Source: Mytilus edulis (taxonomy: Eukaryota). From it: a DNA stretch of 64,000 bases. Below, in pieces: positions 7,242 through 63,875 of this stretch. The translations under genes were made by a program, and so were the position numbers. Every line of letters begins with the position of its first letter. The first letter of the stretch is position 1. The notes under the pieces were generated by a model. That model was not told the DNA's origin. It ran no database searches and worked only from the letters and a program-made list of their open reading frames with translations. The stretch spans positions 24,552,001 through 24,616,000 of the forward strand of contig NC_092353.1 in the NCBI RefSeq assembly GCF_963676685.1, written 5' to 3'.

Positions 7242-7696
7242 GTTTCTCAAAAATTAATTTGTAATAATAATATGCCTAGACATTAGGCTATATTACGGTT
7301 AACCCGGAGAAGCTACTCTACCCTTGGGATATGATATTTATGGTTATGTTGAATCTTTCGTGAATACACGTTCGAATATTATAAGTTTTCCTATTTGATT
7401 AAAATATAATATAAAGCTGAAGTAGGTATTATTACAGAAAAGTTTTACTTATTATTACCTTTTAGATTTCATCTATTCATATATATATGCAATGTCACAA
7501 TTGTCAAACTTGTATACGTATACAAGTATAGGATTGATAGTAATACACTTTTAACAGGAAATGGTTTTAAACTTTATCTCATTTCAGATTAATTTCAAAA
7601 GACTTCTGATAAAATTTGATTTATTTGTGTAAATATTGATTTTGATATGATTACAGTAAACGGAACAAATACCCTGGCGAAAGGTCTCAAAGAATC

Positions 7697-25877: not shown

Positions 25878-26911
25878 AAATTGAGAATGGAAATGGGGAA
25901 TGTGTCAAAGAGACAACAACCCGACCATAGAGCTGACAATAGCCGACGGTCTTCAATGCAGCGAGAAACTCCCGCACCCGGAGCAGTCCTTCAGCTGACC
26001 CCTAGACAAATATGTTACTAATTCAGTTATAATGGACGTCATACTAAACTCCGAATTATACACAAGAAACTAAAATCAAAAATCACACAAGACTAACAAA
26101 GGCCAGAGGCTCCTGACTTGGGTAAGGCGCAAAAATGCGGCCGGGGGTTAAATATGCTTTTGAGATCTCAAACCCTCCTCCTATACCCCTAGCCAATGTA
26201 GAAAAAAAACAAACGCACAACTATACGCATAGTAAAACTCATTTCAAGAGAAGCCCGAGAAGTCCGATGTCAGAATAGGTAACAAAAGAAACTACACAAA
26301 ATGACAATAATACATATTAACAAAGAACTACTAGCAGTTACTGACATGCCAGCTCCGGACCTCAATTGAACTGATTAAAGATTATGTCTTCATCATATGA
26401 ATATCAAGCACAATCCCTCTCGTTAGGGGTTTAGTATTATACCATCATAAAATATATGAGAAGAACATAATCCGTGTCATGCCAACAACTGCTTTTAGAA
26501 TAAATATGTTTAATTCAGATGCAAAGACCCTATAAGTGAATCAATATTAAAGCCAAAATAATCAATCTTTAAGACCTGACAACAGTATCGTAACTATATC
26601 CCCTCTTAATAAGTCTGGTCAAAGGTTTTGTTAGTTTATGAGGTGGATACTGACATTTTTGTGCTTTGTAAAGAATATCACCATAAAAGATTGGATGTGA
26701 AATACCTGAACGTATAAGGTGCCTACATATTGAGTTATATTTACAAATAATGTCCTTGTTACCGATTATAAAATTTAGTAAATGTTTTGACTAGTTTGTG
26801 ATAACGAAAAACCTGGTGTAATCATTTTTCAGTTATTCATAAATTTCTTTTGCTAAAATCTAAAACGGTGTTACAAGCACGAGCGAATCGTACAAGTTGA
26901 GATATATAAAC
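25878..26911 (-). pseudogene. 5'-truncated PLE (Naiad-like, family B): RT C-terminus plus 3' non-coding end
   Basis: Minus strand translates (with stops and frameshifts) VYISQLVRFARACNTVLDFSKRNL*ITEK*LHQ..RYHKLVKTFTKFY...IRSGISHPIFYGDILYKAQKC. This is homologous to YGVYISQLIRYSRTC...KLKSSLRKFY of the element at 44978-61531. Confidence 0.75.
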
Positions 26912-28782: not shown

Positions 28783-29090
28783 TAAGGAATGACTGTAATA
28801 TTTTTTCTGTCTATGAAGAAATAACATAAAATATTTGGTGCACACTGAATAACGCGCGTAGCGGGTTATTTAACAGTGTGCACCACATTTTTTTTATGTT
28901 ATTTCGAATAGACAGCAAAAATATTACAGTCATTTCTTATAATTTAATTCTAAATTCCATTTTAAACCGTAGAAAACCATGAAAAAACGTTGATGACGTC
29001 ACGGTCACATGACTAAATTATGTCTATCGGCTCATAACAAAATAACGTCAGCCAATCAGAAGACGCGTTACATCCAAAATTAAATTATAT
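28783..29090. mobile_element. Foldback non-autonomous element with ~70-bp hairpin arms (Crypton-like)
   Basis: taaggaatgactgtaatattttttctgtcta...tggtgcacactg pairs with cagtgtgcacca...tagacagcaaaaatattacagtcatttctta (28783-28939). Confidence 0.55.
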
Positions 29091-30075: not shown

Positions 30076-30253
30076 TGAAAAAGTTGAATGCAAAGAAAAT
30101 AGTTTTATGGTTTTACCAATAGCCAGTAAATGTTTTATTTATTTTGCCGTATTATGATTAGAAATTTGGCAAAGAACTCGAAATATATTTTTTAATCTTG
30201 GCCAAGTTTTAGCTTGTGTGTAACAGATTGGACTACTGTGTATAATCTCCGTC

Positions 30254-39879: not shown

Positions 39880-42445
39880 TGTTCAGTGTTGTTAATCTTC
39901 TCAAATGGTAGCACTGTTTCGCTGCATCCAAATATAGATATACATGATTTTATAAGTATTCCTAGATGTGTATTCGAGGTAGACCATTATATTATAGGTG
40001 ATGCACAGAAAGGTGCAGAATTAATGAAACCTAGATTACTCTTAATAATAAAATTAGCTGTGACAGGCTGTGTATATATAGTTCAAACTCCACAACTGAG
40101 ATAATTGTCCTTTTTCGTGCAATCTTGACTCACAGTTTGCTAATACATTAAATTTTCCAGGAAGAAATATTGCTTGAACGGTGAAATTAAAAGTCGCTTG
40201 TAACCAAAAAAGTTGTCGCAATAAATTCATAACATATGATGATTTGCATGTGGCTTTGTTTATTACAGAACGTGCTGTCATATTATCGGTGAATACCATG
40301 ATAAGTTGTCTCGTAGCTGTTCGTGCCAATGAAAAAAGGCCAAAATAAGCGTAATTGTCACTTTGATGTAGATATGAAAATCTGCAACTGTTAACATGTC
40401 AATTTTCCAATTACTATAAATGTAATCACTGTTAAAGAAAGCAGCTCCATCACAATTGCACGCATCTGTTTGAATGTTGGTTATTGGTTTGTTGTTTATA
40501 AAATTCACGTATAAATCAAATCCACCAATTTAAGTATTTTTGAAAATCATCTGACAAGATAACTTTATGTTGGCTTCCTTTCAAAAAATGCTTGAGGTCT
40601 AGTAGACGCCTAAGACAAGTGCGACCCCCTTTATAACCTGTTTTTTGCTAGCCCTATGTTTATATTTAGAATCACATAACAAATTAAAAAATTCTGTAAA
40701 TATATCACCAGGTAAACTCAGTGTTAGCTTACATTTACATGTATCTATCAAAATACCTAAATATATTAAACGCTGTGAAGGTCCTTCAACTTTATTCCAA
40801 TTAATGTAAAAACCTAATTTACGCAATAGCTTAATCGAACAAGTTAGAGCAGCAGAGCATCTATCATAAGTAGACTCTATAATCAAAAAATCATCTAAAT
40901 ATGTTATCACACAAAAAAATATAGTTAGATTTCATAATTCTACACATAGCACTACTAAGTCTCTGAAAAATACCTGGGCTTTGGTCTGCTCTTAAAGGTA
41001 ACTAAGTGTCATAGAAAATTGTATCCTGATTATCACCTTGAAATCTCCAGTGTAACCCAGAATAAGGGTAATTAGAAGAATGCACTTTCACACTTCTACA
41101 TGTATATATGCATTTGACAAATCTACTTTTGCAAGGAAATCACCTTGATAAATAATTTTACATGCATCTTTGAAGTCCATATATTTACATGATGTATCAC
41201 TTGCATAATAGTGTATATCGCCAACCTCTGGTAAACTTGCATCATGAATCAATCTTACTGAACCGTTAGATTTTTGTATTGCACCAACAGCACAAGTTTC
41301 GGAGTTTTATCTCATTGCACAAAATATGATATGGCAGTAATTCGGTCCATGTGTGTGGGTCTAATAACCCATAGTTCCTTCCTTTTTTTGAACCATGCAT
41401 ATTGAACTCTGGTTGAGATGACGGTTGTTTGGAAACACTGTTGGCTTGACGATATTGAAATGCAGTTGAGTGCTGAGAAGCATTGTGATTTTTAGCATAA
41501 CATATTGCATAGTGATGTGCCAATTTACAGTCCTTTCGATAACAATCACGTGTGCTAAATCTCCTGCAAATAGTGCGACCATCAGGAAGAAAGGGTCCTT
41601 TCCACTTTTTGTTGTAACTATTAAAGCCTGGATTTTGATCCTTATGATTAGCATTGTTTGCACTACGTGGCACATTTTGGATATTTGAATAGCCTTTGCT
41701 GAAGCACTATCTGGTTTCTGAACAAGGTTAAACTCCCTTAGATTAGATATATAAGTACCCCATTTGAATACTTCAAGTGCCAGGCGGTCCCTGTACTCCA
41801 TATCATAAAATAAAACACTAGCACAAACATTGTTAGCTGGTAACCGAAAAAAAAGATTGTATGTAACAGATAGTCTGGCAGTTCCCCATGTAATAAATCC
41901 CCACTACGAAGCATGTCATTCGTGATCTCAATACTAGCATAACCATATTGTTCAATGGAGACCTGACCAAGTCTCAAATTCTTTGTTAACCATTGTTAAC
42001 CAATCCGTACGAATTTGGTTACCATTGCCAATGTCAATTACGTGCCTGCTGTCTAAGAAGTCTAGGGGATTTGGCCTAACAAAGTCTGTTATCTTATGGG
42101 CTTTCTTAACTCTTACACCCGATTTGGCAGTTGTGAGTGATTTATATGTTCTTGGACTTGATCTACCACATCAGAAGATGGCGAGGTAACTGTACGTTTC
42201 CAGTCGAAGACGTTCAATTTCTTATTCAAGTGAATCATATTTTGACTGTAAATCTTTTAACATTTTGGCAATAGCCTTTTCTGGACCATGCTCTTTTACA
42301 GTTGGCGATCCCTGCCGTTGGTGACTGAACCTGCCTCTGGCAATGGGCTAGAAATTACCCTTTCTGCAACAGAGGGGGCCTTCAATGATGCTATGACAGT
42401 ATCTAGAAGATCGCCTGCTATTGCCTTACTGCTTTTTCTTAACAT
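39880..42445 (-). pseudogene. Decayed DIRS/Ngaro-type retrotransposon (gag-like, RT, RNase H); tyrosine recombinase not recognisable
   Basis: Gag-like fragments EYRDRLALEVFKWG and ICRRF..RDC..KDCKLAH. RT motifs GSVRLIHDAS, FLAKVDLSNAY and ITYLDDFLII...LRKLGFYINWNKVEGPSQRLIYLGILID. DIRS-type RNase H IQTDAC...FTDN...QAIFLPGKFNVLAN..SR. Many stops and frameshifts. Confidence 0.85.
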
Positions 42446-44085: not shown

Positions 44086-44470
44086 GGATGTTCGCTACTC
44101 TGTTTAAAAATAACAAGCTTTTTAAAAGACTGTTATGGATTGATAGTATTAAAGACAGAAACTAAAAAAGAAGAAAAAATGGAGGGTCCGTGTGCTTGTT
44201 TTCGAGATATAAGCCATTGAAAGTTTGGCAGGAAATAATTCTCTCTAGATTTTTCTTACATTTATCATTAGCACTTTTTTGTTTAAAAAACTATGAAAAA
44301 ATAACAAGGATTTTTAAAGATTTTGAAATATGGCTTTTTAAACTTTATGTAATAAAATTATGAAAAGAAAAATAGGGGTTAGTGGGCATTTTTTTAAAGG
44401 CAATACATGGATAAAACCAGAGGATTCCGAAAATCTGACAAAAATTCATGAAATAGAGAAGCAAACATCC
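44086..44470. mobile_element. TTAA-flanked MITE (Kolobok-like)
   Basis: TIR ggatgttcgctactc / gagaagcaaacatcc, with TTAA at 44082-44085 and 44471-44474. Confidence 0.75.
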
Positions 44471-44977
44471 TTAACAGCTGTAAATAGTGATAAAAGGTAA
44501 AATAACAATAATACCGAACTCCGAGAAAAATTCAAAACGGAAAGTTCGTAATCAAATGGCAAAATCATAAGCACAAACACACCAAAACAAATGGATAACA
44601 ACTGTCCTATTTCTGACTTAGTACAGACATTTTCCTATGAAGAAAATTGTGAATAAATCCTGGTTTTATAGCTAGCTAAATCTGTCACTTGTATGACAGT
44701 CGCATCAAATTCTTTTGTATTGACGACGATGTGTGAATAACACATATAGACACAATAGATAAAAATGTCAAAAATAGGGCACAGCAGTCAACATTGTGCT
44801 TTAATAGTTAATCACAATTAAGAACACAAAAGGCATATACTTTCTATGTTGTGATGTTACACTATTGTTCCAGGTAAGGGTGAAGGTTGGAACATATTAA
44901 AACGCTCCTAAGTCGGGAACCTGATGTTCAGTGGTTGATGTGGTCCATAAATGTTTCTCGTTTTTGTATAGATTAGA

Positions 44978-45519
44978 CTGACATAAACAAGATGCTTGAT
45001 TTCTTGATTGACAACATATTTGTTACGTTCGGAGAACGTGTTTTTCAAACAGACTATCGGCATTCCAATGGGAACGAATTGTGCCCCTCTTCTTGTCGAC
45101 TTGTTTCTTTATTTTTATGAGACTGACTTCATACAGGAAATTCTTAGGAAGAAAGATAAGAAGTTAGCAATATCCTTTAACTCTACGTTCCGCTATATAG
45201 ATGATGTTCTTTCACTAAATAATTCAAAAATTTGGTGACTTTGTCGAACGCATCTATCCCAAATCAACTAGAGATAAAGGATACAACAGTTACAGTTAAG
45301 TCGGCCTCATATCTTGACGTACATCTAGAAATTGACAATGAGGGTCGATTGAAAACAAAACTTTACGACAAAAGAGATGATTTGAGCTTTCCAATTGTGA
45401 ACTTTCCATTTCTAAGTAGCAACATTCCAGCAGCACCTGCATACGGTGTATATATCTCCCAATTGATACGATATTCCCGTACTTGCATTTCATATCATGA
45501 TTTTCTTGATAGAGGGTTG
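44978..45519 (+). pseudogene. PLE (Naiad-like, family A) reverse transcriptase, 5' half of a split, 5'-truncated copy
   Basis: MLDFLIDNIFV...QTIGIPMGTNCAPLLVDLFL...FRYIDDVL...SYLDV...KLYDKRDD..FPIVNFPFLSSNIP..PAYGVYISQLIRYSR...FLDRGL, frameshifted. Confidence 0.85.
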
Positions 45520-48500
45520 CAGGGGTCGAATCTAAGTGTTTTGTGTACTGGCCAGTTGGACCAGTGGTCTGAAAATCTACTGATCCGGCTCCAAATTTAC
45601 TAGTCCAGCAATAATGACATTCATTTGTCAAACATTAATATAAATGATAGATGTTTACTTTTATTTCCATGCATTCTTTTTCATATGTTAAAAAAGAGAG
45701 TCTTGATCCTGATTTTAATCTTTATCAAAATAAGTATCAAGGACAGACAAAATGTCAACATTGCCTTCCACTTCATCACAATCTTCACGACGATCATAGG
45801 ATGCCTAACTGGGTCGTGTAAAGCGCTGTCCAGAAATGTTTCTCATTGCAATAGCCGGGATCGGATCAAAAGATGCTATATCTTGTTCCCAAAATTTTGA
45901 AAGTAACGTTTCCTTTATTCAATTCATCAACTTTTTTCCGATCTTCCTATTGAATGTCACTTATATTTTTTCAAGAACTCCTTCTAAAAGTTTACACATT
46001 TTGTGTTGTTGTGAAGGACGCTCACCCTGAGATATTTTAATAAACTTGATTAATTGGAATATTTAGTACCCACTAGTACCGGGTAATTGATTTCGCAGGT
46101 AAAGGAGTAGGTCCGGTAAGGGTCGATTTTCGCCTCAAGTTTCAGGTTCATCTGACGAAAGATTTTGGACACTTTATAAACACTTATGCGTCTATTTTAG
46201 TGGATTCAATAAGTTACTGTGAAAGAGTTTAACTGATTTAGTCATTAAAAACGCTCCGATTCAAGCTAAAATATGAAAAATCTATTAAATATGCCCCAAA
46301 ATGTCACTTTTTAGATGTTTTTTTTGTCAAAAATGAAAGTGGCCGCATCCGTGTTCATCCTCAACCTTTATATATGTTATGTATTATCATCAAATTTAGT
46401 GGTTGTCATTTGTTTATGTGTTACATATTTGTTTTTCGTTCACTTTTTTATACAAATAAGGCCGTTAGTTTTCTTGTTTGAATTGTTTTACATTGTCATA
46501 TTGGGGCCCTTTATGGCTGACTATGTGTTATGGGCTTTGCTCATTGTTGAAGTTCGTACTGTGACCTATAGCTGTTAATGTCTGCATACCTGTCAACCTG
46601 TGACAATGAAAAGGGAAACATGTCCACATGGTTAAGTAATTTAAAACTGTTTTAGTTATTATTGCATTACACTTAAAGCTTTTGATAAATTGTGAAACAC
46701 TGCCTTAATTCCATTTCTTATTGATACATTTCATACAACGTACTACAATTGGTTTTCTAATTTATAGGCAGGGTAACATCTTTACCATCTAATATCTCTC
46801 CTCAGGTTATATTCTACAATTCACGCCTGGTAAACCATCTAATCTCAACCAAATGGTTGAGACGGAAAAAAGTATTCTGGCACTTCCTGTTGAGCTTGTC
46901 TGGTTCAAAATATTCAAAATAAACACAGGGTAGGTAGAATTTTCGTCGATTATTGAAAATCAATGACTTTTTTGTAAAATCGGAGAATGTCAGGCCATAG
47001 ATAAATAATAATTGTAACTAATATGTCTCTTCTTGGTTTAAAATATTTTAAATTGAAGTCACAATCACTTTTCTCCTACGGATTATAATGTTTACATTCT
47101 TTAAATCCGATAGAACGGCTATGATATTAATGACTTAGCAAGAAAATATGTCAATTATTTGTGTTTTTTTAAGGCTTTACGATAACCACGTCTGTAAATT
47201 GCACAAATATTTCTTTGTCAAGCCTACTCTGAGCAGAAAAATAAAAAAATATAAATGGTTGAGATATAAAGGTATTGGTTGAGTCTTTCTGTCACAATGT
47301 TGAGACTTTCTGGTTGCGCTGTACTATTCGAGTTTACCTTTTTTTACGGTTAACCTGATTCATGTTTTTTGTCAGTGGTAACATAAAAATCTAAATACAG
47401 ATACAATTTTAAGCATTGCCGATAGAAACATGCATGCCTTACAAATATAAATAAGATTATTTTACAATGGTTATTTATTAATATGATTTGGATGAATTCG
47501 ATTCCTAACAGACATTATTTAATGCCGAAAATGCATACATTTATAAAGAAATAAAATAGTTAAAAACTAAACAATCGAACAGGACCCCTTGTCTAGGTTT
47601 ATTTTTTCGTACACATTATTTCAGGTGGTGATAATTTAAATGTGAGTAAAAGATGTCATTTTTGTCATTACAATAGTTATCACAAAAAAAATATGATTCG
47701 ATTTTAAAATTGCTTTGTAAGTATTATAAGTGACGTCCAACTTAGTGTAATCACAGATGTTGTATTGAAATAATTAAAACTTAGATGTTTGTTCACAATT
47801 GCATTCAGGGCACATCCTTAATATTTGGTAGTATTCAGCAACATTTATATTATAACCCGGGCCCCGTCACACTAGGCCGTGATCGCACTACGATGGGCTT
47901 ACGATCTCTAAAATAATGCCGTATTGACGATCGTAGTCCAGTATGGTCGTGTTACGGTCTTGATGAGGTCTTGGTGATCGTGTTGAGAGTAGCAAACTTT
48001 AAAAATGTTCAAAACAATCGTGATGCGTTCGTGGCGAAATCAGGTCGCAGTTCTGTTCTAGTCGTAGATTTTTTTAGCCGTGGAACTGTCAGGATCAGTT
48101 CCAGGTTGAAGTGTGTAAATCAGTTCTAGGGAGAACTTACCAATGACCAAATCAGTTCTTGGTTAGAACTGTTCTAGCTAGAACTGTCTTAAAAGTGTCA
48201 GGAGATAGTTCCACATAACTTATGATGAAATGAATGAATTTAATGATTATCCATTTCTGAATATTAATTCAGTTTTCGTTTTAAATATTTTAAAACTGGA
48301 TTCGACGTAGCTAAATTGTGGGAGATAGTTAGTTTGAACTCTGGCCTGGTCAACTTAAATTCTAAAAAACAAAATTGTGTGTGTCTATGCTAAGCATGCG
48401 ATATCTGCTAAAAACTGTGATCACACCTTACCAGATAGCTCGAACGAACGCCGAAAGAATAAACAAAAGTTTTTCATTTACAAAATTTGCATCCGTTAGG

Positions 48501-50869
48501 AGTCCGCGATGTAATGACCAAATAAAACGGACGTGTAATATGCCGAAAAATGGGGTGGAAGAGGAATAAGAAAAACAAATGTCAGATTAAAAAGCCAATA
48601 ATTTTGCCTGATCATGATTAAGAAGTTGAGCCAAAAATATTCATGATACTAAAGAAAACTAACATACCAATAATTGCTTTTTCTTACGCGTTTTGTTTTC
48701 AATTTTTATGTATCCGTTTTATTATCAATGTTCTTTCTGTGGTACGATTGCCAATGATACAACTCTCCACAAGAGACCAAAATGACACATAAAGTAACAA
48801 CTCAGTAGAGGTCGCCGTACGGCCTTCAAATATAAGCAAAGCCCATACTGCATAGACAGCTATAAAAGACCCCGAAATGACAATGTAAAACAATTGTAAC
48901 GAGAAAACTAACGGCCTTATTAATATAAAATAAAATGAACGAAAAACAAATATGTTACACATAAATAAATAAATAAATTCTAGCCATGGAGATGTCAATT
49001 ACAACATTATTGACGTTAAAGCTTCTGTGCAAAACTGCATCTCAATCGCTAGACTTAAAATCTCCAGCGTTAGAACTTTAATACTAGTACTTAAAAAAAC
49101 ACAGCTATTTACTATTTAGACTCTATTACAACCAAAGTCCTCTTTAGAAGCTGCTGTGATAACTACAAACAAGATTAAAATGACTGTTGAAATGTCAAAC
49201 AATATACGGCAAGTTTATGAAATTTGACAGTTGTATATGTAATTGATACTAAGCTACACAAGGTCATGTTTTTCTCTTACTGTTTATGACGTCTTTACAC
49301 TAAATTCATTGGATGTTTGTCATGATGTTCAAGAACCCGGTTTATGTGTTACATATTGAATCATATTTGTTTTTCGTTAATTTGTTGTTTTTTTTTATAT
49401 ATATATAAATAAGGCCTTTAGTTTTCTCGTTTAAATTGTTTTACATTGTCATATCGGGGCCTTTTGTAGCTGACTATGCGGTATGGGCTTTGTTCATTGT
49501 TGAAGACCGTACGGTGACCTATAGTTGTTAATGTCTGTGTCATGTTGGTCTCTTGTGGACAGTTGTCCCATTGGCAGTCATACCACATCTTCTTTTTTAT
49601 AGTTGAAAATTTCATTCACCAGAATATCTCAACATTGTTCCAGAATATCTCAACCGATACCAGAAAATCTCAACATGACATACTTTATAACATATGTGAT
49701 GATTTTGTATCTGTGGTTAAATTGTTTACATTGATTACAGTTCGGCAGAAGCCATATTTTATGCATTGTGTATATACTTTAATAAAACATAGAAAAGAGT
49801 AAGATGTTTCGCGGGTAAACTTTGGGTCAGGTCAAATGTGAAGGGGTGTTCCAAAGGAAACTCAGATACGAGTAACGAGACACTTTGGTAGAACACCCCT
49901 CCTTCAAGAATGGTACAGCTCCCATCGGGGTATATAAGCAGGAGAGAATCCTAGCTCAGGGTCGATTGTCATAAGTCTTCGGAGACATAAGACCAAGCTA
50001 CGGTACGTCGATATTCGAGATCGCTGTCTCGTATATATAAGATATTATAGATAATATTACTAAGTGTAATAAAGAACAGGTCGGTGCCTGTTATAAATAC
50101 GGACTTGTGCATTTACAAGCTGAACCGTATTGTACCGTATAGGACAAGTGTGAGTCTGTGTGACCACCTTGTAAAGTACATAATTGTACCAACGGAACAA
50201 AGACAAGTGTGTAAACTTGTAGGGTACATTATTGTACCAGGAGGACAAGTTTGTTCCTGACCCAGGACAAAATTGTAAGAGAGTACAAATTTGTACCAGT
50301 GTATATATTTTGAGTAGAGTATTAATAGATAGTTTATTAAATATTGCAAAGAGCAGTTGTACATATTTTGGTTCATTGACGTTAATATTTGAATAAAGAT
50401 TATTTGTTATATGTTTTGTAAAAAGAGCAATTTTGGATCCAGTATCAAACTGGTAACGGACACATTCTAAAATAGAAACAGACACGCTTACCCTGTGTAC
50501 ACGTTACATAATTTGGTGGTTAGCGCTGGGATCCAAATAGTTCATTTTTAAATCCATAGTGAAAGATTATATATCCAAATTTGATCATCTTATAAACTTA
50601 TACCCAAACTGTCTTGTGAGAATTTACTGTTCACTTTTGCACAGATCGTTTTTGTCCAAACTGTTCACTTTTGCACAGATCAAAATTGTCCTGTTAACGT
50701 TTTAAATTTCCCACGGTTAAGTTACGATTATTATTTACATTAGGGATTAACAAGCGATAGTGGTGCAGGCAATTTTTTGATTGACATTTATTACGTTGTA
50801 CATTTATGACATTGTGTTGATATTATTATATTGTGAATGCATAGTTATATCGCAAATTAAAGTACAAAA

Positions 50870-51874
50870 ATGTCTTTTGATGACGAATTGACAAAACAAA
50901 TTGAAGGTATGGAAGAGACAAGGTATAGACACAGTTTTGTTTCGTCTACACCTAAAGATCAGGGTGTTCGTCCAAAAGATACTTTTATAAAAAGAAATGA
51001 TTCGGGTCTGGAATCAAGAGGGTCCTTATTGTCAAGAAAGGGAGATAATGTGAAAGTTGATTTACCAACATTCAACAACCCGAATACGCACAAAACTGTA
51101 AAATTTTCCCAAATTGATTTAAAGGAAGGGGATACTTTGCCTTTACCCATAGATAATAGTTACATTAGGGAAATAGACAAAACTGACAAATCAAAGTACC
51201 GACATACTGGTAACACAGATAATTCTGGTGTAAAAATTAAACCATGTCACTATAACGGTAGCACATCATGGATGGACTATTTGTCCCATTTTGAAATGTG
51301 TGCACTTGTAAATAATTGGTCGGAAAACCAAAAAGGATTATATTTGGCGGTATCGTTAATGGGACAAGCACAAGCTGTACTTGGAGATTTACCAAGTGAG
51401 AAAAGACAAAACTTTTCCGATTTAGTCAGCGCACTTGAAGAGCGATTCGCACCTTCTAGTCAAACTGAGTTATATAGAGTTCAATTTAAAGAGAGACGTC
51501 AGAGAGCCAGCGAATCACTTCCCGAATTGGGTCAGTCAATTCGAAGATTGTCCAACTTAGCATATCCTACTGCCCCATTGGACGTACGTGAAACTCTCGG
51601 AAAAGAGCAGTTTATTGACGCGCTCGTTGATTCGGAAATGCGACTCAGCATAAAACAATCGCGACCGAAAGGTTTAAATGATGCCGTAAGACTTGCTGTT
51701 GAATTAGAGGCGTACAATAAAGCCGAAAATAAAGTAAGAGAGGGACGAGGTTATTTACGGCAGACTATGAATGATGACGAGTTCGATAGGGAAGAAAAGA
51801 TTACAAAAAGTGACTCACCTACATTTGTACGAACGACATTGCATCATGGATGCAAACAATGGAGAAAAGTCTAA
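50870..51874 (+). CDS. Gypsy Gag (capsid-like part)
   Basis: YNGSTSWMDYLSHFEMCALVNNW...LAVSLMGQA...RRQRASESL.ELGQSIRRL..LAYP...EQFIDAL. Confidence 0.85.
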   Translation: MSFDDELTKQIEGMEETRYRHSFVSSTPKDQGVRPKDTFIKRNDSGLESRGSLLSRKGDNVKVDLPTFNNPNTHKTVKFSQIDLKEGDTLPLPIDNSYIREIDKTDKSKYRHTGNTDNSGVKIKPCHYNGSTSWMDYLSHFEMCALVNNWSENQKGLYLAVSLMGQAQAVLGDLPSEKRQNFSDLVSALEERFAPSSQTELYRVQFKERRQRASESLPELGQSIRRLSNLAYPTAPLDVRETLGKEQFIDALVDSEMRLSIKQSRPKGLNDAVRLAVELEAYNKAENKVREGRGYLRQTMNDDEFDREEKITKSDSPTFVRTTLHHGCKQWRKV

Positions 51875-53625
51875 GTACTCTTACGACTGAAATGGCAAAA
51901 TTAAAACTTAGTGGTACAAATAATAAAAAGAGATATACCCAAAGTAAGAGGACAAATAAGGGCTGTTACAATTGTGGCAAGTTTGGTCATTTAGCAAGGG
52001 ACTGTCGCCTACCCCGAAGAAATAAGAACAATTATAATGAAAATAAGGGGGATGGGACTGTCAAAACATTAATGAAAACTAGGAAACAAAATAACCGTAA
52101 GACAAAGGAAGGTGCGGTTACAACAGCATCTGAAGATGCTGGTATGTATGTCAAACTAAATTTAGGAGACATTGAAGCCAAGTTTGTGGTTGATACAGGA
52201 GCAACTTTGACATTGGTATCTTCCAAGTTATACGATATGTTGACTCCATTAGATAAATCATATCTAAGCGAAGTTAAGACAACTGTTAGGTCAGTGTGTG
52301 GCAATAAGCTAGAGCTTCGTGGAAAAGGCAGGTTCAATCTGCATTTCGGTCCAAATATGTTGCAATCTGAAGCTGTTGTGACTGATCTACAAGTTGACGG
52401 TATACTTGGTTTAGACTTCATGAAACGACATAATTGTTTAATTGATGTTAAGAATGGACACTTTTGTATTGGGGATTTTAAGGTAGATTTGTGTTTTCAG
52501 GGATCAATAGGCTGTTACCGAGTGGTTGCTTCAGAAGCGGTTGTCATACCGCCAAGGTCAGAAATTGTCATTAATGGCACGGTTTGCTTAGCAGAAGGTC
52601 AGAAATTACCTGCTGACAATGCTTTGTTAGAAGCAAATGAGCATGCAGGGAAAGACTACATTTTAACTGCTAGAACGTTGGTAAGGTCAGGCGAAAAAGT
52701 CCCTGTTAGATTAATGAACACAGAACTAGATACTAAGACAATTTATCCTGGTACAACTATAGCCCAAATGTCTGGTGTTGAACAAGTACTAGATGGTAAT
52801 ATTAGTTCAAATGAACAGAAACATGACGGACTTAGACCAGATTTACGAGATCTGTTAGACAGGACATCAGATGAATTGACTTTGAAAGATAAACAAAAAG
52901 TAAAATCTTTGTTGATAGAAAATCAGAACTTGTTTGCTTCTTCTGATGTTGACTTGGGAAGGACCAATCTTGTAAAACACGAAATCAATACGGGAAACGC
53001 AAGGCCATTTAAAGAACCGCCTCGTCGTACACCATATCATTTGAACAAGGTAGTAAATGACAACCTTGACAAAATGTTACAAAAAGAGATTATTAAAGAT
53101 ATACCTGCACACAAGTTGGCTTGGGAGCTTAAAGAGAAGTTAGAACACTCCCACAGTTTTGTCAGAGGTAAAATAAAAGGGCAATTGCGAAGACAGAAAC
53201 ACTATCACGACCTCAAATTGTCATATCAAAATTTCAGAAAAGATGATGAGGTATACGTCTATTTCCCAGTAAAGAAACCTGGGATGTCTTCAAAATTGAC
53301 TAGTTTCTGGAAAGGTCCTTTCAAAATTCTCGACAAATATGGTGACCTTACATATAAAGTTGACTGTGGATACAGAGGGAAACCACAAGTCATACATGTC
53401 GATAGACTTAAGAAAAAGAACAAACAGACATTAAGGACAGAATCAGATAATAACACTTTTGTTCCATTAGACACTGAAAATGATACAGCTGAAAACGACT
53501 CTTATTCACAAGACATTGCTGTTCATGAGTCAACGTTGCCTGAGGAAGAAACGCAAGAAATTAGTGATGAAGGGCGCCGTCCAAGGCGAAAACCAGCTTG
53601 GATGGCAGATTACATTGTTAAATAG
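51850..53625 (+). CDS. Gypsy Gag CCHC zinc knuckle + aspartic protease, fused in frame to the integrase C-terminal (GPY/F) module
   Basis: CYNCGKFGHLARDC; VVDTGA...ILGLDF; pre-RT linker HEINTGNARPFKEPPRR...DKMLQKEII joined directly to ...RRQKHYHD...KLTSFWKGPFKIL...VIHVDRLK. No YxDD, RNase H or DDE core. Confidence 0.88.
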   Translation: MQTMEKSLSTLTTEMAKLKLSGTNNKKRYTQSKRTNKGCYNCGKFGHLARDCRLPRRNKNNYNENKGDGTVKTLMKTRKQNNRKTKEGAVTTASEDAGMYVKLNLGDIEAKFVVDTGATLTLVSSKLYDMLTPLDKSYLSEVKTTVRSVCGNKLELRGKGRFNLHFGPNMLQSEAVVTDLQVDGILGLDFMKRHNCLIDVKNGHFCIGDFKVDLCFQGSIGCYRVVASEAVVIPPRSEIVINGTVCLAEGQKLPADNALLEANEHAGKDYILTARTLVRSGEKVPVRLMNTELDTKTIYPGTTIAQMSGVEQVLDGNISSNEQKHDGLRPDLRDLLDRTSDELTLKDKQKVKSLLIENQNLFASSDVDLGRTNLVKHEINTGNARPFKEPPRRTPYHLNKVVNDNLDKMLQKEIIKDIPAHKLAWELKEKLEHSHSFVRGKIKGQLRRQKHYHDLKLSYQNFRKDDEVYVYFPVKKPGMSSKLTSFWKGPFKILDKYGDLTYKVDCGYRGKPQVIHVDRLKKKNKQTLRTESDNNTFVPLDTENDTAENDSYSQDIAVHESTLPEEETQEISDEGRRPRRKPAWMADYIVK

Positions 53626-56554
53626 ATTTTATACATTTAACTGAATTAAAATGTGTATATAGTATTTCTATGTTGTAAAGTTAGTTTTAGACATGCGGGA
53701 CGCATGTGTTTTTGAGGCGTGGGTTATGTGATGATTTTGTATCTGTGGTTAAATTGTTTACATTGATTACAGTTCGGCAGAAGCCATATTTTATGCATTG
53801 TGTATATACTTTAATAAAACATAGAAAAGAGTAAGATGTTTCGCGGGTAAACTTTGGGTCAGGTCAAATGTGAAGGGGTGTTCCAAAGGAAACTCAGATA
53901 CGAGTAACGAGACACTTTGGTAGAACACCCCTCCTTCAAGAATGGTACAGCTCCCATCGGGGTATATAAGCAGGAGAGAATCCTAGCTCAGGGTCGATTG
54001 TCATAAGTCTTCGGAGACATAAGACCAAGCTACGGTACGTCGATATTCGAGATCGCTGTCTCGTATATATAAGATATTATAGATAATATTACTAAGTGTA
54101 ATAAAGAACAGGTCGGTGCCTGTTATAAATACGGACTTGTGCATTTACAAGCTGAACCGTATTGTACCGTATAGGACAAGTGTGAGTCTGTGTGACCACC
54201 TTGTAAAGTACATAATTGTACCAACGGAACAAAGACAAGTGTGTAAACTTGTAGGGTACATTATTGTACCAGGAGGACAAGTTTGTTCCTGACCCAGGAC
54301 AAAATTGTAAGAGAGTACAAATTTGTACCAGTGTATATATTTTGAGTAGAGTATTAATAGATAGTTTATTAAATATTGCAAAGAGCAGTTGTACATATTT
54401 TGGTTCATTGACGTTAATATTTGAATAAAGATTATTTGTTATATGTTTTGTAAAAAGAGCAATTTTGGATCCAGTATCAAACTGGTAACGGACACATTCT
54501 AAAATAGAAACAGACACGCTTACCCTGTGTACACGTTACACATATTTAGCTTAATGAAATTATATTAGTAAAGAAAAAGAACAAACAGTAATTTTATGTT
54601 TATAATGTTTTAGAAAAATACTAATTTACTGATATATATGCTAGTTTATCAATGATATCACTGTCATTTTGTCAATAGCTGACTGTGCTTGCCACATTTA
54701 ACTGCTGTAGAAAAGTCATTACGATGTCATTTTAAATCATATTCATTTGTGTTATACACGAGATAAACCGTAATTCCAATATCTATGGCATGACATTCTC
54801 CGATTTTACAAAAAAACGCATTGATTTTCAGTAAATTGACGAAAAGTCTACCCACCCTGTGTTTGTTTTGAATATTTTGAACCAGAAAATCTCAACTGGA
54901 AGTGCCAGAATACTTTTTTCCGTCTCAACATTTGGTTGAGATTAGATGGTTTATCTGGCGTGCAATTGGAGGTATTTCATATACTATACAGCCTTATGAT
55001 TTTTGACAGTGTTGTCCATTGAAATTAGAGAATAATAAAATAAAGTTAAACAGGTAAAGGAAGTATAGATGAAAAAAATAGTTTTCAACTATTTATTTTG
55101 TAATTGTTTAAAGGGAAAAGATAATGAAAAGTAATATTCCAATATGTATTTGCATTAAATTTGTTTAAGATTTAATCTTTTTTACCCGAAAAACTGTAAA
55201 TATAAGAAACAATTTTGATTGGTGACAAATAAGGGGAAGTAGCTCCAGTAAAATTGTAAAAACAACAGTGAGATGCACAAAATATTTACGACCCAAATAG
55301 GCGAGTGATATGAGAGCCAAATTTACATTTTTAATGCACCTACCTAACACACGGCTAAATTATATATCACTGGAAAGCTAAGAATGTGTACTTTCTAAAT
55401 ATCCCGGTCGTCAAAAGAAATTATGGTGCACTTTTTTTTAAATCGAGGTCAAAGGTCATGGGTGCAATTTCAATTCACAGATTCTTCCAGTAGAAAAATC
55501 AAGTTAAAACAAATGCAAAAACGAAACAATTTTACAGGAATGCTGTATTACTGTTGGGAAAATATATTTCTATCATATTATTAATTAATTTTGGTTGATG
55601 TTAACGATAACGCATGTTACGTAACGTTTTCTCTCGGAGTCTTTGAAAATCAACCATTAAGTCACACAAATGTATCTGTAGTCGCCCTTGCATTATCTAA
55701 ATATTATAATACCTCCATATCATTTGATTGCACGTATTTACAAACATATATCTGCAAATTTGATATAAATAATCCGAAACAATATATTTGAAGCAAGGGG
55801 GAAATATAACATATGACGTGTTTTTAATTGATAAGAAAAGTCCCTTGATGAGCTGAACAATAAAATTGAGGAAGCCTATGGTCTCCTGTTAGTTTGAAAG
55901 CCTGCCAACCGCTTCAAGATCAGACAACAATAGGGCAGCTTTTTTTATATTATTGTAGTGCAATATGTTGAGTCTGGATCATACCGCAATTTCATTTACA
56001 TCACTAAATCAGATATGATAAGAGTACTAACTAACATTACTGAAATGAGTAAAGTGCTACTAGTATATTTATATCAACAAAATTGTGACAATTTTAATAT
56101 AAAACATCACAAGGAAAAAATGATCACTCATTGTACGTCAAACTGTGTTTGATTTTACTTTAGTCGGCCGCCGTGTATCTTGAGATATCTAATTAATTAA
56201 ACAACACTTGACAAAGTAGTTTGTACTTTTTCAAATTACGCTAGTGATGACGTTCGGCTACTTTGGCACCGCTTCAAACGGAGGACAAGGTTATCCCAAT
56301 ATTTATTTGGCTTTCTTATGTTAAAATCCCGTTAGCTTATAACCTAAATGATCGAAACGTCGGACCAATGGGATGTTGGACCATTTAGGTGTCGGAATAT
56401 TGCGATATCGGAATATTTTAGCTTCATTTTAACTTGTAATCTCATCATTCTTATCGGTCAATATATCCATACAAAGACAACTTCCTTGGGCATATAACAG
56501 TACAGCAGAGGTTTTGCTCAAAGCGGACACAAGATCTACTATATACGATTGAAT

Positions 56555-56880
56555 TAAAAATTGGGAATGGACATGAGGGATTTGTCAAAGAGACACCAAC
56601 CCGTTCAAAAAGCAGACAACGGCCGAAGACCACCAATGGGTCATCAATGCAGCAAGAAACTCCCAAACCCGGAGGCGTTCTTCAGCTGGCCCCAAAAATG
56701 TACTAGTTTGAAATGATAATGGACGTCATGCTACGCTTCGAAATATACTCAAAAAATTTCAATAAAAAATCATACAAAACAAAGAAAGGCCAGAGGCTCC
56801 TGATTTGGGACAGGCTCAAAATTGCGGCGGGGTTAACATGTTTTTTGGAAATCTCAACCCTCCCCCTATACCTATACCAA
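56555..56880 (-). repeat. 3'-end copy of PLE family B nested in the Academ remnant
   Basis: Matches 36414-36745. Confidence 0.7.
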
Positions 56881-57012
56881 TGCGTGAACAGCTCAAATCT
56901 TGTGGAAAGTTGGATGACATCATACCGGACCGATGTTGCCTTTTAGCCAACCAAAGTCATACGGAGAACTTTTATTGTTTCTGTAGTTAGGTCGACATTG
57001 TCTTGGATAAAA

Positions 57013-57441
57013 CCCCCAAGGGTGACTGGGGAATAGAAATATGGTCACTTGGTCTTCTCCCGACCGGCAGTAAAACGCTTGCCGAAGTGGGGTGTCCGTT
57101 AAGCTGTGCGTGATGTATTAAGTTCGCAGTCACGTCCGGTCAGAATGGGGACGTTAAATCCGATGTCTCGTGTAAAGAAAGTGCCACACTCTTTGCACGT
57201 TAAGAACCCTTACAACAACTCTTTGAGGGCTGGTAGGTGTCCTGTTGTAAAACAAAATTTCTGTCCCTATCCAATGTGCCCTCATTTTCCGGTGGCAGTC
57301 GAAATTGCTCCGGCTATCGTCCCTTTTGGCCTCTGTTGTGAAAAGACCTGCCTATTGTATTTGTTGTGAACTTGTTCTCGTCCTGAATATGCATGAAATA
57401 TTTGCCACTGGACGTTAAGCAACTAACAATCAATCAATCAA
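57013..57441 (+). mobile_element. SINE with Meta/Deu-like central domain and (AATC)n tail
   Basis: 12-bp TSD tcttggataaaa (57001-57012, 57442-57453). Central ggacgttaaatccgatgtctcgtgt...gcacgttaagaaccc. Tail ccactggacgttaagcaactaacaatcaatcaatc. Confidence 0.8.
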
Positions 57442-60400
57442 TCTTGGATAAAATGTTGACCCCCAGAAGAAAAATACTGCCATGTAGAATGTATGCCCCA
57501 TTTTAAATTTTCTAATCTCCTGAGCAGTCAAACTTGTTAATAGTATCTCAAAGGTGTGTACATAAATACGGTGCATTTGTAATAATAAACCTAAATGAAA
57601 AAGAGTAAAAAAAGATATTTATAGATAATATACATTCTACTAAAGCCATACATCTAAGAACTTTGTCAATAGGAATATCGTACGCTTTATTAACTGCCGC
57701 AGATGCGCCTTCATCCAAAAGGCAATACAGAAATGTTTTTAAAGCAGGTGGCATAATTTCAATTGAATAATCCAGTGAAATGTTTTTAGATAATGGATAT
57801 TCATCTTTGGATTACAACTTTACCCTATATCTGCTTCCGTAAAATACTAGTAGCTGTATAAAGTGCTTGTAACCAGTTTCGCAGTCACTGCTCAGATCTT
57901 TAAATTTGGCAGACTGTATATCACAGTCATTTTAAACGAGTTATTTTCTGTCATTACGGCATAAGACAAAATTATAGAGCTACTGTATACAATATTGGAT
58001 GTGCCTTGGCCTTGTTGATGCTGTATACATGCAACTATAAATTGACCATATATTTTTAGTTTTTGTTGAAGCCGATAATATGTTGTGTAGTTTTCTTGGC
58101 GGCGATACTCGGGCAGAAATTGCGCCCTGTTAACTGATCAAGTAATTAAAGTTGTTAACCAGAATACTTTCTTGTGTACAGGCACGTCATCTTTAATCGT
58201 CGAAATGTTAGTAAAAGCTGTTTTATGTTCAGAATTGAATAGCACTTTACTTTCAAATTTTGTATCAAATATTTAGCGATGCAAGCTCGATGGTATAAAG
58301 ATTTAATAGTAAAATTGTTATGAGTTATTTTGTAAATCAGATCATGGTAGGAGATATATATGTTGTAACACTCAATACAGCTTGAGTTTGCTCCTCAGGG
58401 AATATCTTATGAAGTTGTGTAACTTGCTTATAGGCTTTATACATTTGCAAAATATACAAACAGACAAATCAGAATGAGTTGTAGATCTACTGCCCTCGTT
58501 GATATATAAGAAGAGACTGGTCGGTAGAATTGGTACATGTAGTACAAAATCTTTGTACAGACAAAAAATATTTATAACAACTCTTATGATATTTTGTATT
58601 TTCAAATGGGATGTTTTCCTTTTTTTCATATTCATCGACCAGTCTTCTGTAAACTTCATCTTTTCGTTTTTTCCACTGCGGCAATACAACTGTATCTTCA
58701 CTTTAGTGTTTAACTACATAGTTTCTATGTAGTAAATGCATGACAGACTATGAATATCTTTGTCAATCAATGGATAGTTTTTGATTTTTAGCATAGGAAT
58801 GGTTTCCTTGTGAACTGGACTGTGAAAATTTGACACGACTCGGAAGATTTTCTACAATTTTCCGATACGATTCCTTATTTAGAAAGGGGTGAATTCTACA
58901 GACCTCAAAAACTATGTTTTACTTTGATTTGATCTTAATTTCGGACGATTTTATATATATTTAAGCTACACTGAAGTTAAAGATAGAAATAGAACCGTTT
59001 AAATATGATTTATCGTACTCTAATAGCACTATTAAGTACACGGAAATCGACTAATATATTCAGTAAAAAAACGATAACGAAATAGATAAGGGATTCCGGA
59101 AACTATAGTGATTTTACCCAACATCATAAAATTACAGAAATTCGTGATTTTAAAGAAATGTTGAGATAAAGTCTTGATCTTGAATGAAAAAACGATAACT
59201 GATGAGTAATTTGGTGTGTTCTAAAACGGATAGAATGCAAAAGCATTTGATAAAAATTTAATTGTAGATCCGAAAAGGTCAGGATTATGAAAATTTTCGT
59301 ACAAAATGTCAAATATTTAGAAGGAATGCAAAAGCATGCGGACTTACAGTTGTATATATTGTTTTTCATTATTTTAAGAATCTAATTCACTTAATTATTC
59401 TGTCTAAAAGAAAACTTACAACTAATTTCCTTTGCTTGAAAAACATGTCGTAATTTTATAATTTTCAACTAATTTCTGAAATAAACGTCAATTTTACAAA
59501 AACTGCACCGTACGATTTTGTGACGACCGGGCAAAAATCAAAGTTAAATCATTATTCTTTCATTTAAAAAAGAAATTAGCCGTGTGTTAGGTGGGTGCAT
59601 TAAAGTCCTTAACTAGACGTCTTTTTCAAATATTACACTCGCCTAAAAGCAAACGCGATTGGTGTTAATTACGGGTCAGTTGACAGGTATGATGTCTGTG
59701 TCATTTTTGGTCTCTGGTAGATACATTGAGGTTGTCTCATTGGCAATCATACCACACATTCTTTTTTATATAGATGGGATATGGTGTGCATGCTTAACCA
59801 AAAATGTTACAACTTGAATCCGAGCAAAATCAACTGCATTCGCATTCGAATATTCCAGGTTTACAACAAGAAAATTCTGTTTGCATGTACATGTAATTAT
59901 ATAAACCGCCTACTTTCATGAATCATGATCGACCTTTTCTCCAAGAAACCCAAATGGTCTAAACCCTATGCAGATGACATACTTATCAGGTCCACAAATT
60001 TTCAAATTAATTACATGATAGAAATACCATTAGCTATGCCTATGGTTACATGTATAATTAATTTTCAGCCTGAAAAAGGGGGGGGGGTCATTGTTTTGTT
60101 GTTCGACACGGATCTTGTTTTGAAATTATTTCCGCTAATTTGACGCTTACATATTATTTTTTTCGGTGGTCGTGAATCGCTCTTTGAGCATGTATATTCA
60201 ATTAATTAGTACTAACTTTTCAGTTTAAATTTCCCCCTTTTCATCCATCTCATGTTTTTCGGACCTTTTCTAGTGTAAGACAAGGGTGAAACTGCTTCAT
60301 AAGCTACCAAAATGAAGATCGTTATCTATAAATTAATATCGATCTGCATAACAGTATTCATGAAAAGCAGTTCACGTGTCCGATTAATATGAATTATTCT

Positions 60401-61077
60401 CTCTTCATTCTTCTCCTACGTCAAAAACATGCTCCATATTTATTTTTAGAACGGAAGTACTATTTCGACAATGACAATTGTAACAATAAACTTTATTAAG
60501 TTTTAAAATTGCATTTAAAAGTTATTCAACTCTTTCTCAATGTATTTGAATAAAAAAGACTATTTAAATGATCATATTTTATTGTTATGGAAAATTACGA
60601 CAATGTACATGACTTACGATATCAATGCGCAACTTTATGCGCAGACGGCGCGAAAATTTAAACCCCCGAACTACCTTAAGAAGGAAACCGTCTAAAATTT
60701 AACTAAAATGCTAAAATTGTGAAGATTTCAGTAATACAGCATGACTTAATGATACTAATTAATACCCGATATATGTGCATTGTATTGCCAAAAACAGCCC
60801 ATATTTATGTAGCAGAAGCATTCTACTTTCCAATAAATAACTGAAAGCTTACATTTTAACAATTTTGTAAAACTGCTATATGTTGGGGCCAAAAAGGGGT
60901 CTTACTGGACCTACTCCTTTGTTTGTAACCATAAGCACGATGCAATTAGTGATTTTTATCGACAAATTTCTACTGGTTAGCCGGACTACCTGCTGACAAA
61001 ATCGACTGGTCTCGGACTGGTCCGGCGCAATTTCTACTGGTCTCGGACCACCGGACCAGCGCTAATTTCGACCCCTG

Positions 61078-61531
61078 GAGGGTTATTGCTCACAAGGAAG
61101 CTATTAAATCAAGAATTCCACATGGTGAAGTTGAAATCATCTCTTCGTAAATTTTACGGACGCCATCACGAGTTGGTTGACCGTTATGGAACAACCGTTT
61201 CACAAATGATATCGGATATGTTCCTTACGTCGTAACTAAAATCCCCTTCCCTTTCATAAATGTGACCTACAGAATTAGACTATTTACCGGATTTGTTATC
61301 TCATAAGCAACACGACGGGTGCCACATGTGGAGCAGGATCTGCTTACCCTTTCGGAGCACCTGAGATCACCCCTAGTTTTTGGTGGGGTTCGTGTTGTTT
61401 ATTCTTTAGTTTTCTATGTTGTGTCATTTGTACTATCGTTTGTCTGTTTGTCCTTTTCGTTTTTGGCCATGGTGTTGTCAGGTTGTTTTCGATTTATGAG
61501 TTTGACTGTCCCTCTGGTATCTTTCGTCCCC
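61078..61531 (+). pseudogene. PLE family A: RT C-terminus and 3' non-coding end (second half of the split copy)
   Basis: Continues the interrupted frame: LLTRKLLNQEFHMVKLKSSLRKFYGRHHELVDRYGTTVSQMISDMFLTS* (61086-61235). No C-terminal GIY-YIG follows. Confidence 0.85.
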
Positions 61532-62508
61532 AAGTACATGTACACGCATATAGACAATATAAAATAAACGATACCGTTTGCATAATACAACGAATAGACC
61601 TTGTGAAAAACACTAACATGTGCTGACTTCAATATTTGCTTAAGTCAACCGTGTGTGTCACAGAAACCTCTAAACATTAAATGAACAGAGCAATTATAGG
61701 AATATTTGTTTTCACTACAGTTTGTATACCAATGACATTCAATTTTATATTAAAAGGCCGGGTCAATGTCACCTTTGTCAAATGTATAAGTTGTTAACAT
61801 AGATTTTTTTTTTATTTTAGTCGGGTGTTCTGAGAGATTTTCCTATAAGATATATACAAATCTTATCCTGAGGTTAAAGCAAACCGAGAATTTGTATCCA
61901 TAGGACACCATGCACTGCTAGCATTATCACAGCTTCATGTTGAAATAAGAGAAGTTTTAGTAAAAACACCTTATTTGGACTTATTACTCAAAATATCTGA
62001 AAGCTTTACATATAGATTATGCAGGTGGAAATTTGAAGCAGTCGCTGAACAATCAAATGAAAATAAAGGACAACGAACATGTGACATACTCAGACGGAAA
62101 CTGCAGAAGATAATCCTAGAAATGAGGTTTCTAGGTCCTCAACTTTGATAAATATAAACCATTATCCTGCAATCGGCTAACCATTGTACAGATAACAGGA
62201 ACACAAATAAATTTTGGTTTTATTTGTAAATGTACATAAAAAAAAGTATCCTGTTACCCGGTTCCACATTGGGCAAGCGTAATATGGATTTTTCTTTCTA
62301 TGTAACAGTTCATATTATGGTCCTCTTCGCGTTCCGCGTTTCAACTATGCTGAATTCTTTGAAAATCATAGGCGATTATTCGGATTATATCAACTACATG
62401 TAACGCTCATGTACCGGGTGTAAATTGCAGGGTAAAAGAGATAAAAGCAATATATGTACATTGTAGGAAACATAAATAAATAGGAGAAAAGCTTGGCACA
62501 GAAGGAGC

Positions 62509-63239: not shown

Positions 63240-63875
63240 AAGTTGCTTATTTAAAAAGGGTTTAAACTAGGTTGTTTAAATATCAAAATAAAATTCCAAT
63301 TAAAATATGAACAATTTTTGATATATTTGGTATGGTAGAAACATTTTTAAATAATGAAATTGGTACCGAAACATTACAAATTGAAGGTTTCAAAATTGAA
63401 AGAAAAGATAGAAACGCTATTAATGATCGCGGAGGTGTGATTGAGTACATACGAAATAGTGTTTGTCACCAAAGAAAAATCGATTTAGAAATAGGTAGTA
63501 TTGAATCTTAATGGATTGAAATTAAATTTCCAAACACAAACTCTATTTTAATAGGCATTTTTTTTTTATCGTCCACCGAGTTCATTGCAATCTTGGATTT
63601 ATTCAGTAGAAAAACAAATAGAAAAAGCGACAGCAGAAAATATTGAAATTATACTTTTAGGAGATTTCAGTAGTATCTATTCACATATAGAGCATACAGT
63701 TGTCGGAAATCAAAAATGTAAGGACTGTATTAATTTGTATGCTTTACAACAGATTGTGCACAAACCAACAAGAGTAACAGATAAATGTGCAACTACCATA
63801 GACCGTATGTATACTACCGATGTAGACCATATTATATAGAAGTAAGTGTTATGCTGTCAGTGATCACTATTCCGT
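63240..63875 (+). pseudogene. APE endonuclease domain of a non-LTR retrotransposon (CR1/L2 group), degenerate
   Basis: DIFGMVETFL...RKDR...RGGV..YIR...WIEI...YRPP...IILLGDF...LQQIVHKPTRVT...TTID, with stop and frameshifts. Confidence 0.8.

Follow-up and report, generated by a model that had tools for sequence, protein, structure and literature searches.

Whether a nest of mobile elements can serve as a record of the order in which its members arrived is the question raised by a 16,554-bp locus of Mytilus edulis, located in a 64-kb stretch of DNA (contig NC_092353.1, positions 24,552,001 to 24,616,000 of the forward strand) that was analysed at its full length and is hereafter called the window (32.7% G+C, N count of 0). 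Nested clusters of transposable elements (TEs), and the reading of insertion order from them, are long established (PMC7755421, PMC2672092), and a bias of TEs to insert into older TEs has been documented (PMC2836564). The initial annotation of this DNA had described a seven-level nest inside the reverse transcriptase (RT) frame of a Penelope-like element (PLE) and had taken it to record the relative activity order of at least six superfamilies. The nested topology was confirmed, boundaries checked at base level agreeing to within one base, and so was the growth from about 1 kb to about 16.5 kb: 988 bp are the outer PLE's own share, 15.6 kb lies inserted within it, and about 12 further mobile elements are stacked in that fragment of roughly 1 kb. 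The proposed order of activity did not stand. The account judged probable, with moderate confidence, is that of an ordinary though deep nest of dead elements that lies between genes in a repeat-rich genome and in which at least one layer was pre-loaded with passengers or pre-decayed.

The outermost element is recognised by its RT, the frame of which (three frame changes, no stops) stops after ...FLDRGL at 45519 and is taken up by LLTRKLL at 61086. With the frame at 45223–45519 as query, 1331 relatives were retrieved; among the 120 listed, 104 fit a junction pattern, the commonest junction forms being the unbroken DRG-LLL-TRKLL (20 and 11 sequences). Homologues thus run across the break, and one of them, P0002, matches both pieces as adjacent residues, residues 64–150 corresponding to 45259–45519 (93%) and residues 149–199 to 61080–61232 (96%), which makes the two pieces one RT. 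No C-terminal endonuclease follows this RT, the stop of the window frame at 61233–61235 being at the homologues' stop position. In the full-length relatives P0025 and P0031 a GIY-YIG domain stands at the N-terminus and both the CxC and the DKA motif are present, while the window copy is truncated before all of these; as the CxC and DKA motifs are diagnostic of Naiads (PMC8557442), the outer element is a 5'-truncated Naiad. Neither motifs of PLE 3' untranslated regions (UTRs) nor motifs of the RT end turned up in the Naiad supplement (PMC8557442), as far as its text was legible. No canonical hammerhead was found in its terminal repeat, either by Rfam over the whole window or by a hammerhead core pattern, which occurred only at 29.9 and 33.5 kb. 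These latter sites (29873 and 33465, minus strand) are two hammerhead-ribozyme-like cores in a dispersed repeat family, recognised by this pattern and below Rfam gathering scores. Two more repeat 3'-end fragments (44490–44976) lie directly 5' of the outer Naiad, so the cluster may reach further in that direction.

The insertion that breaks the RT (45520–61077) has a perfect 11-bp terminal inverted repeat (TIR) and an 8-bp target site duplication (TSD) with one mismatch. Presumably it is hAT-like, in view of the 8-bp TSD and the short TIR. Its ends are those initially annotated, and the search for a remnant of a hAT transposase in it returned 0 Pfam matches and 0 homologues. Further inside, the best-supported inner link is that between a short dispersed repeat (level 4) and the element that splits it (46585–59691), which has a perfect 13-bp TIR and an exact 7-bp TSD. 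The rejoined short repeat aligns with three uninterrupted window copies at 78–82% over 204–249 columns and scores 235 bits with one TSD copy vs 218 with two. The inserted element had been annotated by its CAT..ATG ends; these ends and the TSD proved exact, while its superfamily can now be named, since the TIR equals that of zebrafish Pdre2 letter for letter over 13 bp and the element, judged by its termini, is P-like. It contributes about 600 bp of its own, a non-coding remnant without transposase, and no subterminal repeat pair of at least 10 bp was found in it.

The repeat split by the P-like element had been called SINE-like (short interspersed nuclear element), a label that is now doubtful. 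By eye, no TSD was found in its flanks, and a search for an RNA polymerase III head gave 0 hits with ARAGORN, Rfam and A/B box patterns, a weak test in that the same patterns also missed the SINE at level 7. Its last 35–45 bases align to the 3' terminus of a repeat family with copies at 25.9 and 36.4 kb, and in shuffle tests all eight comparisons with these copies had at most 5 of 2000 shuffles reaching the score; two of four comparisons with a copy at 56.5 kb were significant (at most 10 of 2000), and of the eight with the outer-PLE family none was. The 25.9-kb copy stands at the end of a stretch beginning with a PLE RT remnant (26962–26762). No level-4-type copy with an attached RT was found in the window, and a motif upstream that would be common to level-4 relatives and PLE 3' UTRs was not significant (48–187 of 2000 shuffles). 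Because it has neither TSD nor polymerase III boxes and its 3' terminus is homologous to a 3' UTR family of Naiad type, level 4 is probably no SINE but a PLE from a different family in truncated form, or else a dependent of PLE type. At 25458–26962, a plus-strand relative of level 4, seemingly interrupted by about 150 bp, stands tail-to-tail with a minus-strand PLE 3' UTR and RT remnant.

Between the hAT-like element and level 4 lies a miniature inverted-repeat transposable element (MITE; 46101–60920) with a perfect 14-bp TIR that extends at 79% over 38 bp (E~1e-3). Only a 2-bp duplication flanks it, a match expected by chance alone in 6% of cases, and no second copy of the hAT-like host was found in the window for an empty-site test. 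The MITE ends are 5'-RR...YY-3' as in Kolobok, a weak criterion, and the TTAA duplication of Kolobok was not found at its flanks. An assignment as a solo-LTDR of KolobokP was tried and dropped, the terminal motifs being absent from the KolobokP supplement, in which line breaks could hide a match. The 910 bp between level 4 and the right arm of the MITE gave no coding match (three open reading frames) and no repeat match within the window. This stretch ends in CC+TTAA and resembles in this the TTAA-flanked element at 44086–44470, without a left partner having been found in the window; it could be the right end of a Kolobok-type element, and a further, partly deleted layer at this place is possible. 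The element at 44086–44470 is itself a 385-bp TIR element with TTAA on both flanks, Kolobok-like in type.

The P-like element holds two larger components. The first is a long-TIR, foldback-like element (46814–54971; TIR 91% over 193 bp; TSD ambiguous, 3–4 bp and A/T-rich), the arms of which are about 500 bp long and identical in 371 of 522 columns (71%) when the long terminal repeat (LTR) element inside it is left out. Since this alignment spans the insertion point, the LTR element landed within the right arm; a Gypsy with a 4-bp TSD had been listed in the initial annotation. The LTR element has TG..CA ends, the TSD CATA, and LTRs identical at 814 of 814 positions (95% upper bound of divergence 0.4%), and is probably the latest event in the nest. 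Its gag, zinc knuckle, protease and an integrase C-terminal piece are present; searches for RT, RNase H and the integrase core found nothing, and the element is consequently non-autonomous. A pol that ends in an integrase C-terminal domain is in keeping with Gypsy and not with Copia. Each LTR also contains a 147-codon stop-free antisense frame (50060–50503 and 54092–54535, minus strand). No partner was found for the possible unpaired element end that lies in the long-TIR element.

The second component (55298–59645) has a 10-bp TIR, a 120-bp subterminal inverted match at 72% and a 3-bp duplication, AAA/AAA, which has a chance probability of 4% by itself and fits the 3–4 bp TSD of AcademX. Transposase pieces were found at 58870–57562 (N-terminal ~440 aa, with seven stops and frame changes), 56967–56885 and 56540–56487 (C-terminal tail), so that the remnant matches the first ~440 and last ~60 residues of proteins of 1100–1650 aa. 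Its motifs are those of what we take to be Academ, and searches with the homologues gave 0 matches in Pfam and among PDB sequences. A model of the C-terminal half of a homologue (mean pLDDT, the predicted local distance difference test, 61) ranked XRN/FEN1/Exo1/Rad2 nucleases first, none at E<=0.001 (best 3.4e-3), and fits AcademX weakly. When the PLE 3' end in the transposase tail is left out, the tail becomes one contiguous match (E 1e-13 vs 3e-8, best of five trial boundaries), in agreement with the initial annotation, which had a PLE 3' end among the innermost elements. The SINE-type insert, also foreseen, has an exact 12-bp TSD; neither a tRNA head nor a conserved central domain was found in it by ARAGORN, Rfam and A/B box patterns. 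Three of its motifs do not occur in the text supplements of PMC11481361, among which the sequence library may not be included. Leaving the SINE out did not extend the protein match, and its link to Academ therefore rests on the TSD, which is long and exact and supports it.

Four links, then, are controlled by independent empty sites: Naiad with the hAT-like element, short repeat with the P-like element, long-TIR element with the LTR element, and Academ remnant with the PLE 3' end. For the chain from hAT-like element through MITE to short repeat, and for the position of the long-TIR element and Academ remnant in the P-like element, nesting is read from enclosure only, and the former chain is the weak part of the whole. 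The flank-rejoining check suggested by the initial annotation thus restored contiguous sequence at these four links, and the links among hAT-like element, MITE and level 4 came without a control; most element types proved right, apart from the P-like element and level 4, and the list was incomplete, three or four further pieces being present.

These controls bear on the possibility that the nest is partly artefactual, produced by misassembly or by chance pairing of abundant repeat ends, especially at the MITE level. A scan for unanchored pairs of TIRs of at least 10 bp with flanking repeats of at least 7 bp gave 7 in the window, whereas 20 simulated sequences (order-3 Markov) contained an average of 5.25, from which it follows that TIR plus TSD is by itself not evidence; furthermore, collapse by the assembler can yield identical LTRs, and the MITE has its 2-bp duplication only. 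With breakpoints fixed by an independent reference (±10 bp), however, the hAT-like element has a joint chance probability of 4e-9 and the P-like element one of 2e-10, all four junction pairs restore their references to the base or codon, and the window is free of N. An artefact of this kind is accordingly considered very improbable.

Whether the topology is also a chronology depends on age. Private differences were counted among three to four window copies per family, and the outer RT was compared with the majority of 21 close homologues. It differs at 11 of 185 residues, or ~2.7% at the nucleotide level (confidence interval 1.3–4.7%), and the 3' UTR of the same PLE has 6/116 or 2/66 private differences. 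The PLE passenger of the Academ remnant has 49/276 (18%) and by this measure is significantly older than the outer 3' UTR (49/276 vs 6/116, Fisher p=0.0004). The Academ frame holds seven stops in ~430 codons; with divergence set to 2.7%, 0% of 300 simulations reached that number, and with 4.5%, 2% did. For level 4 the count is 10/137, and for the two extra short-repeat copies 6/133 and 13/140. Some inner pieces therefore look older than the outermost PLE, and on these sequence comparisons the nest is not a reliable clock; even for single copies its topology is doubtful as a chronology and would be a partial one only.

The alternative in which all inner elements were inserted here one after another following the outer PLE, so that topology equals chronology and the locus is a hotspot, would explain why all layers are concentric and why the innermost LTR element has 0/814 differences. 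The long-TIR arms, differing at 14/189 positions (~3.7% per arm), are compatible with the age of the outer PLE, and in the like-for-like test level 4 is not significantly older. Such a history would nevertheless need about 12 insertions within at most 5% divergence, while repeat copies elsewhere in the window have 6–11% private differences, and the Academ frame is more decayed, and the PLE passenger in it more divergent, than the outer PLE allows. It is held to be rather unlikely.

A nest assembled elsewhere and moved here as one unit, in a composite of 13–15.6 kb bounded by the hAT-like element, the MITE or the P-like element, would account for the perfect TIRs and clean TSDs of the hAT-like and P-like elements and for the apparent age of the short-repeat or PLE passengers, three of the four seeming to equal or exceed the outer PLE in this respect. 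A significantly greater age is confined to the passengers of the Academ remnant, however; the hAT TSD already contains a mismatch, and as the elements' own lengths are 0.6–0.7 kb, the cargo would be ~20-fold larger. Transport of the entire block is regarded as quite unlikely.

Pre-decayed or pre-loaded arrival of a layer in an otherwise ordinary nest is the simplest reading, because the decay of Academ and the divergence of its PLE passenger exceed the age of the outer PLE. Ordinary retrotransposition and cut-and-paste insertion would have produced the nest, with every insert enlarging a target whose disruption presumably costs little. For cut-and-paste movement the ends of an element suffice. 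Of the TIR-bounded layers, at least one, and most likely the Academ remnant, was probably decayed or carrying passengers before it came here; an outer TIR layer perhaps likewise moved after decay or loading. The passengers of such an element need not be younger than the layers around it, and nesting order is then not necessarily chronology. Several points weigh against this account: level 4 and the two extra copies are not different from the outer 3' UTR (Fisher p=0.33, 0.71 and 0.16); the age estimates come from three to four window copies in each family, and differences between subfamilies make them too high; some Academ stops may belong to stretches that are out of frame; three frame changes occur in the outer PLE as well; and the MITE links are without empty-site control and the 910 bp without an element match.

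An activity order of superfamilies does not follow in any case. One locus orders single copies only, its siblings are unordered (long-TIR element vs Academ remnant; LTR element vs SINE vs PLE end), and levels 1 and 7, probably together with level 4, contain PLE-type sequence. The locus as an insertion sink and as a presence/absence block, both suggested initially, are plausible.

Table 1. Components of the nest in order of position in the window.
Feature	Positions	Strand	Basis
Level 1: 5'-truncated Naiad-type PLE, RT C-terminal half	44977–45519	+	tblastn of homologues; weak RVT_1 match
Left copy of 8-bp TSD (partner 61078–61085, 7/8 identical)	45512–45519		base-level check
Level 2: non-autonomous hAT-like element, left part	45520–46100		11-bp TIR
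Level 3: TIR MITE, left arm (inner boundary approximate)	46101–46397		14-bp TIR, Kolobok-like ends
Level 4: short dispersed repeat, 5' part	46398–46584	+	alignment to window copies
Level 5: non-autonomous P-like element, left part	46585–46813		13-bp TIR; 7-bp TSD 46578–46584 / 59692–59698
Level 6a: long-TIR (foldback-like) element: left arm 46814–47314, body, right-arm start 49618–49694	46814–49694		arm alignment
Possible unpaired element end within long-TIR element	47861–48060		extent and type uncertain
Extra level-4-type copy within long-TIR element	48738–48975	-	window self-comparison
Second extra copy, head-to-head with the preceding, 378 nt apart	49354–49601	+	window self-comparison
Level 7: Gypsy-like LTR element; LTRs 49695–50508, 53727–54540	49695–54540	+	TSD CATA, LTR identity
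Level 6a: long-TIR element, remaining right arm	54545–54971		arm alignment
Level 5: P-like element, middle part	54972–55297		enclosure only
Level 6b: internally deleted Academ-type remnant	55298–59645	-	transposase homologue matches
Level 7: PLE 3' end in Academ transposase tail	~56541–56884	-	few codons lost, no TSD
Level 7: SINE-type insert, CAAT-repeat tail	57013–57441	+	exact 12-bp TSD 57001–57012 / 57442–57453
Level 5: P-like element, right end	59646–59691		TIR
Level 4: repeat, 3' part	59699–59770	+	alignment to window copies
910-bp stretch between level 4 and MITE right arm	59771–60680		ends in CC+TTAA
Level 3: MITE, right arm (inner boundary approximate)	60681–60920		TIR alignment
Level 2: hAT-like element, right part	60921–61077		TIR/TSD
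Level 1 resumed: RT end (stop 61233–61235) and 3' UTR	61086–61530	+	homologue alignment

The window agrees with a mytilid source in its G+C content, which is 32% in M. galloprovincialis (PMC7653742), in the single hit that carried an organism name (M. coruscus, 53%) and in its combination of Naiad-, Academ- and Kolobok-type elements, a combination typical of bivalves. As far as the window is mapped, the nest is intergenic. It starts ~6.9 kb 3' of the stop of the second of two tandem eight-exon paralogues of MFS transporter type on the plus strand (7695–20467 and 30252–38122), which are 76–90% identical in exon DNA over eight exon pairs, one exon having a weak MFS_1 match; from their motifs we take them to be SLC22-like. 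Just 3' of the nest is a 99-codon open frame (61849–62148, plus strand), preceded by a pyrimidine-rich AG that is a possible splice acceptor; it had 0 matches in Pfam. Other repeats are spread through the window: a tandem array of 42-bp period with young core copies 97–100% identical (23103–23914), a further TIR element (16747–17725; TIR of 11 bp, rich in G+C; imperfect repeat at its flanks), two small inverted-repeat elements, hairpin-like or MITE-like (27490–27605 and 28791–28931), and a decayed minus-strand retroelement (40054–41903; RVT_1 match at 40602–40931), presumably of DIRS type in view of its gag-like and RNase H-like neighbours. The plus-strand frames 9553–10591 and 63311–63839, both with 0 Pfam matches, are presumably C-terminal RT and endonuclease remnants of long interspersed nuclear elements, and the end motif of frame 4350–4661 (plus strand, 0 Pfam matches) is, we assume, like the C-terminus of the GIY-YIG endonuclease of canonical PLEs.

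The nest reveals neither a new mechanism nor a new gene function. It can serve as a clean benchmark for repeat-annotation tools in a group with many unclassified repeats, as in M. coruscus with 20% 'unknown' repeats (PMC10294476), and provides exact ends for several probably uncurated families, including the P-like one with its fish-identical 13-bp TIR. The growth from 1 kb to 16.5 kb is on the scale of the hemizygous blocks of mussels, which reach 30 kb and for which the role of TEs was left open (PMC7653742). If transport of the whole block were true, small TIR elements would be vehicles moving multi-family TE blocks in bivalve genomes, kilobase-scale hemizygous blocks would arise in one step, and chronologies based on nesting would be misleading.

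A literature search of incomplete coverage, at the level of listings, found no report of this locus and none of a bivalve nest of similar depth. The components all fall into known groups or resemble them; the nest is a good example of a system already known in kind. The outer element shares with described Naiads the C-terminal RT with no endonuclease after it and the strong 5' truncation, and differs in that the window copy is without the endonuclease half (PMC8557442). The level-3 MITE has the purine-purine/pyrimidine-pyrimidine ends and short TIRs of Kolobok and KolobokP but not the TTAA duplication (PMC9587614). Identity of the 13-bp TIR links level 5 to Pdre2, which has 8-bp TSDs and 12-bp subterminal repeats (bioRxiv 10.1101/2024.03.22.586318), whereas level 5 has a 7-bp TSD and neither of these; a 7-bp TSD is found within the P superfamily in Galileo (PMC4168063). 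AcademX, which is expanded in bivalves (PMC10294476), is similar to level 6b in its 3-bp duplication and in a homologue family ending in a modelled domain like FEN1/XPG/XRN nucleases (PMC10045372); most of the open reading frame of the remnant is deleted, and the structural match is weak and that of a homologue, not of the remnant. The nests of the maize adh1 type, for which TEnest, REANNOTATE and TE-greedy-nester are used (PMC7755421, PMC2672092), likewise yield their order from TSDs and rejoined flanks, but consist mostly of LTR elements, whereas short non-autonomous DNA transposons and the ends of PLEs make up most of the M. edulis nest, with at least seven levels in 16.5 kb.

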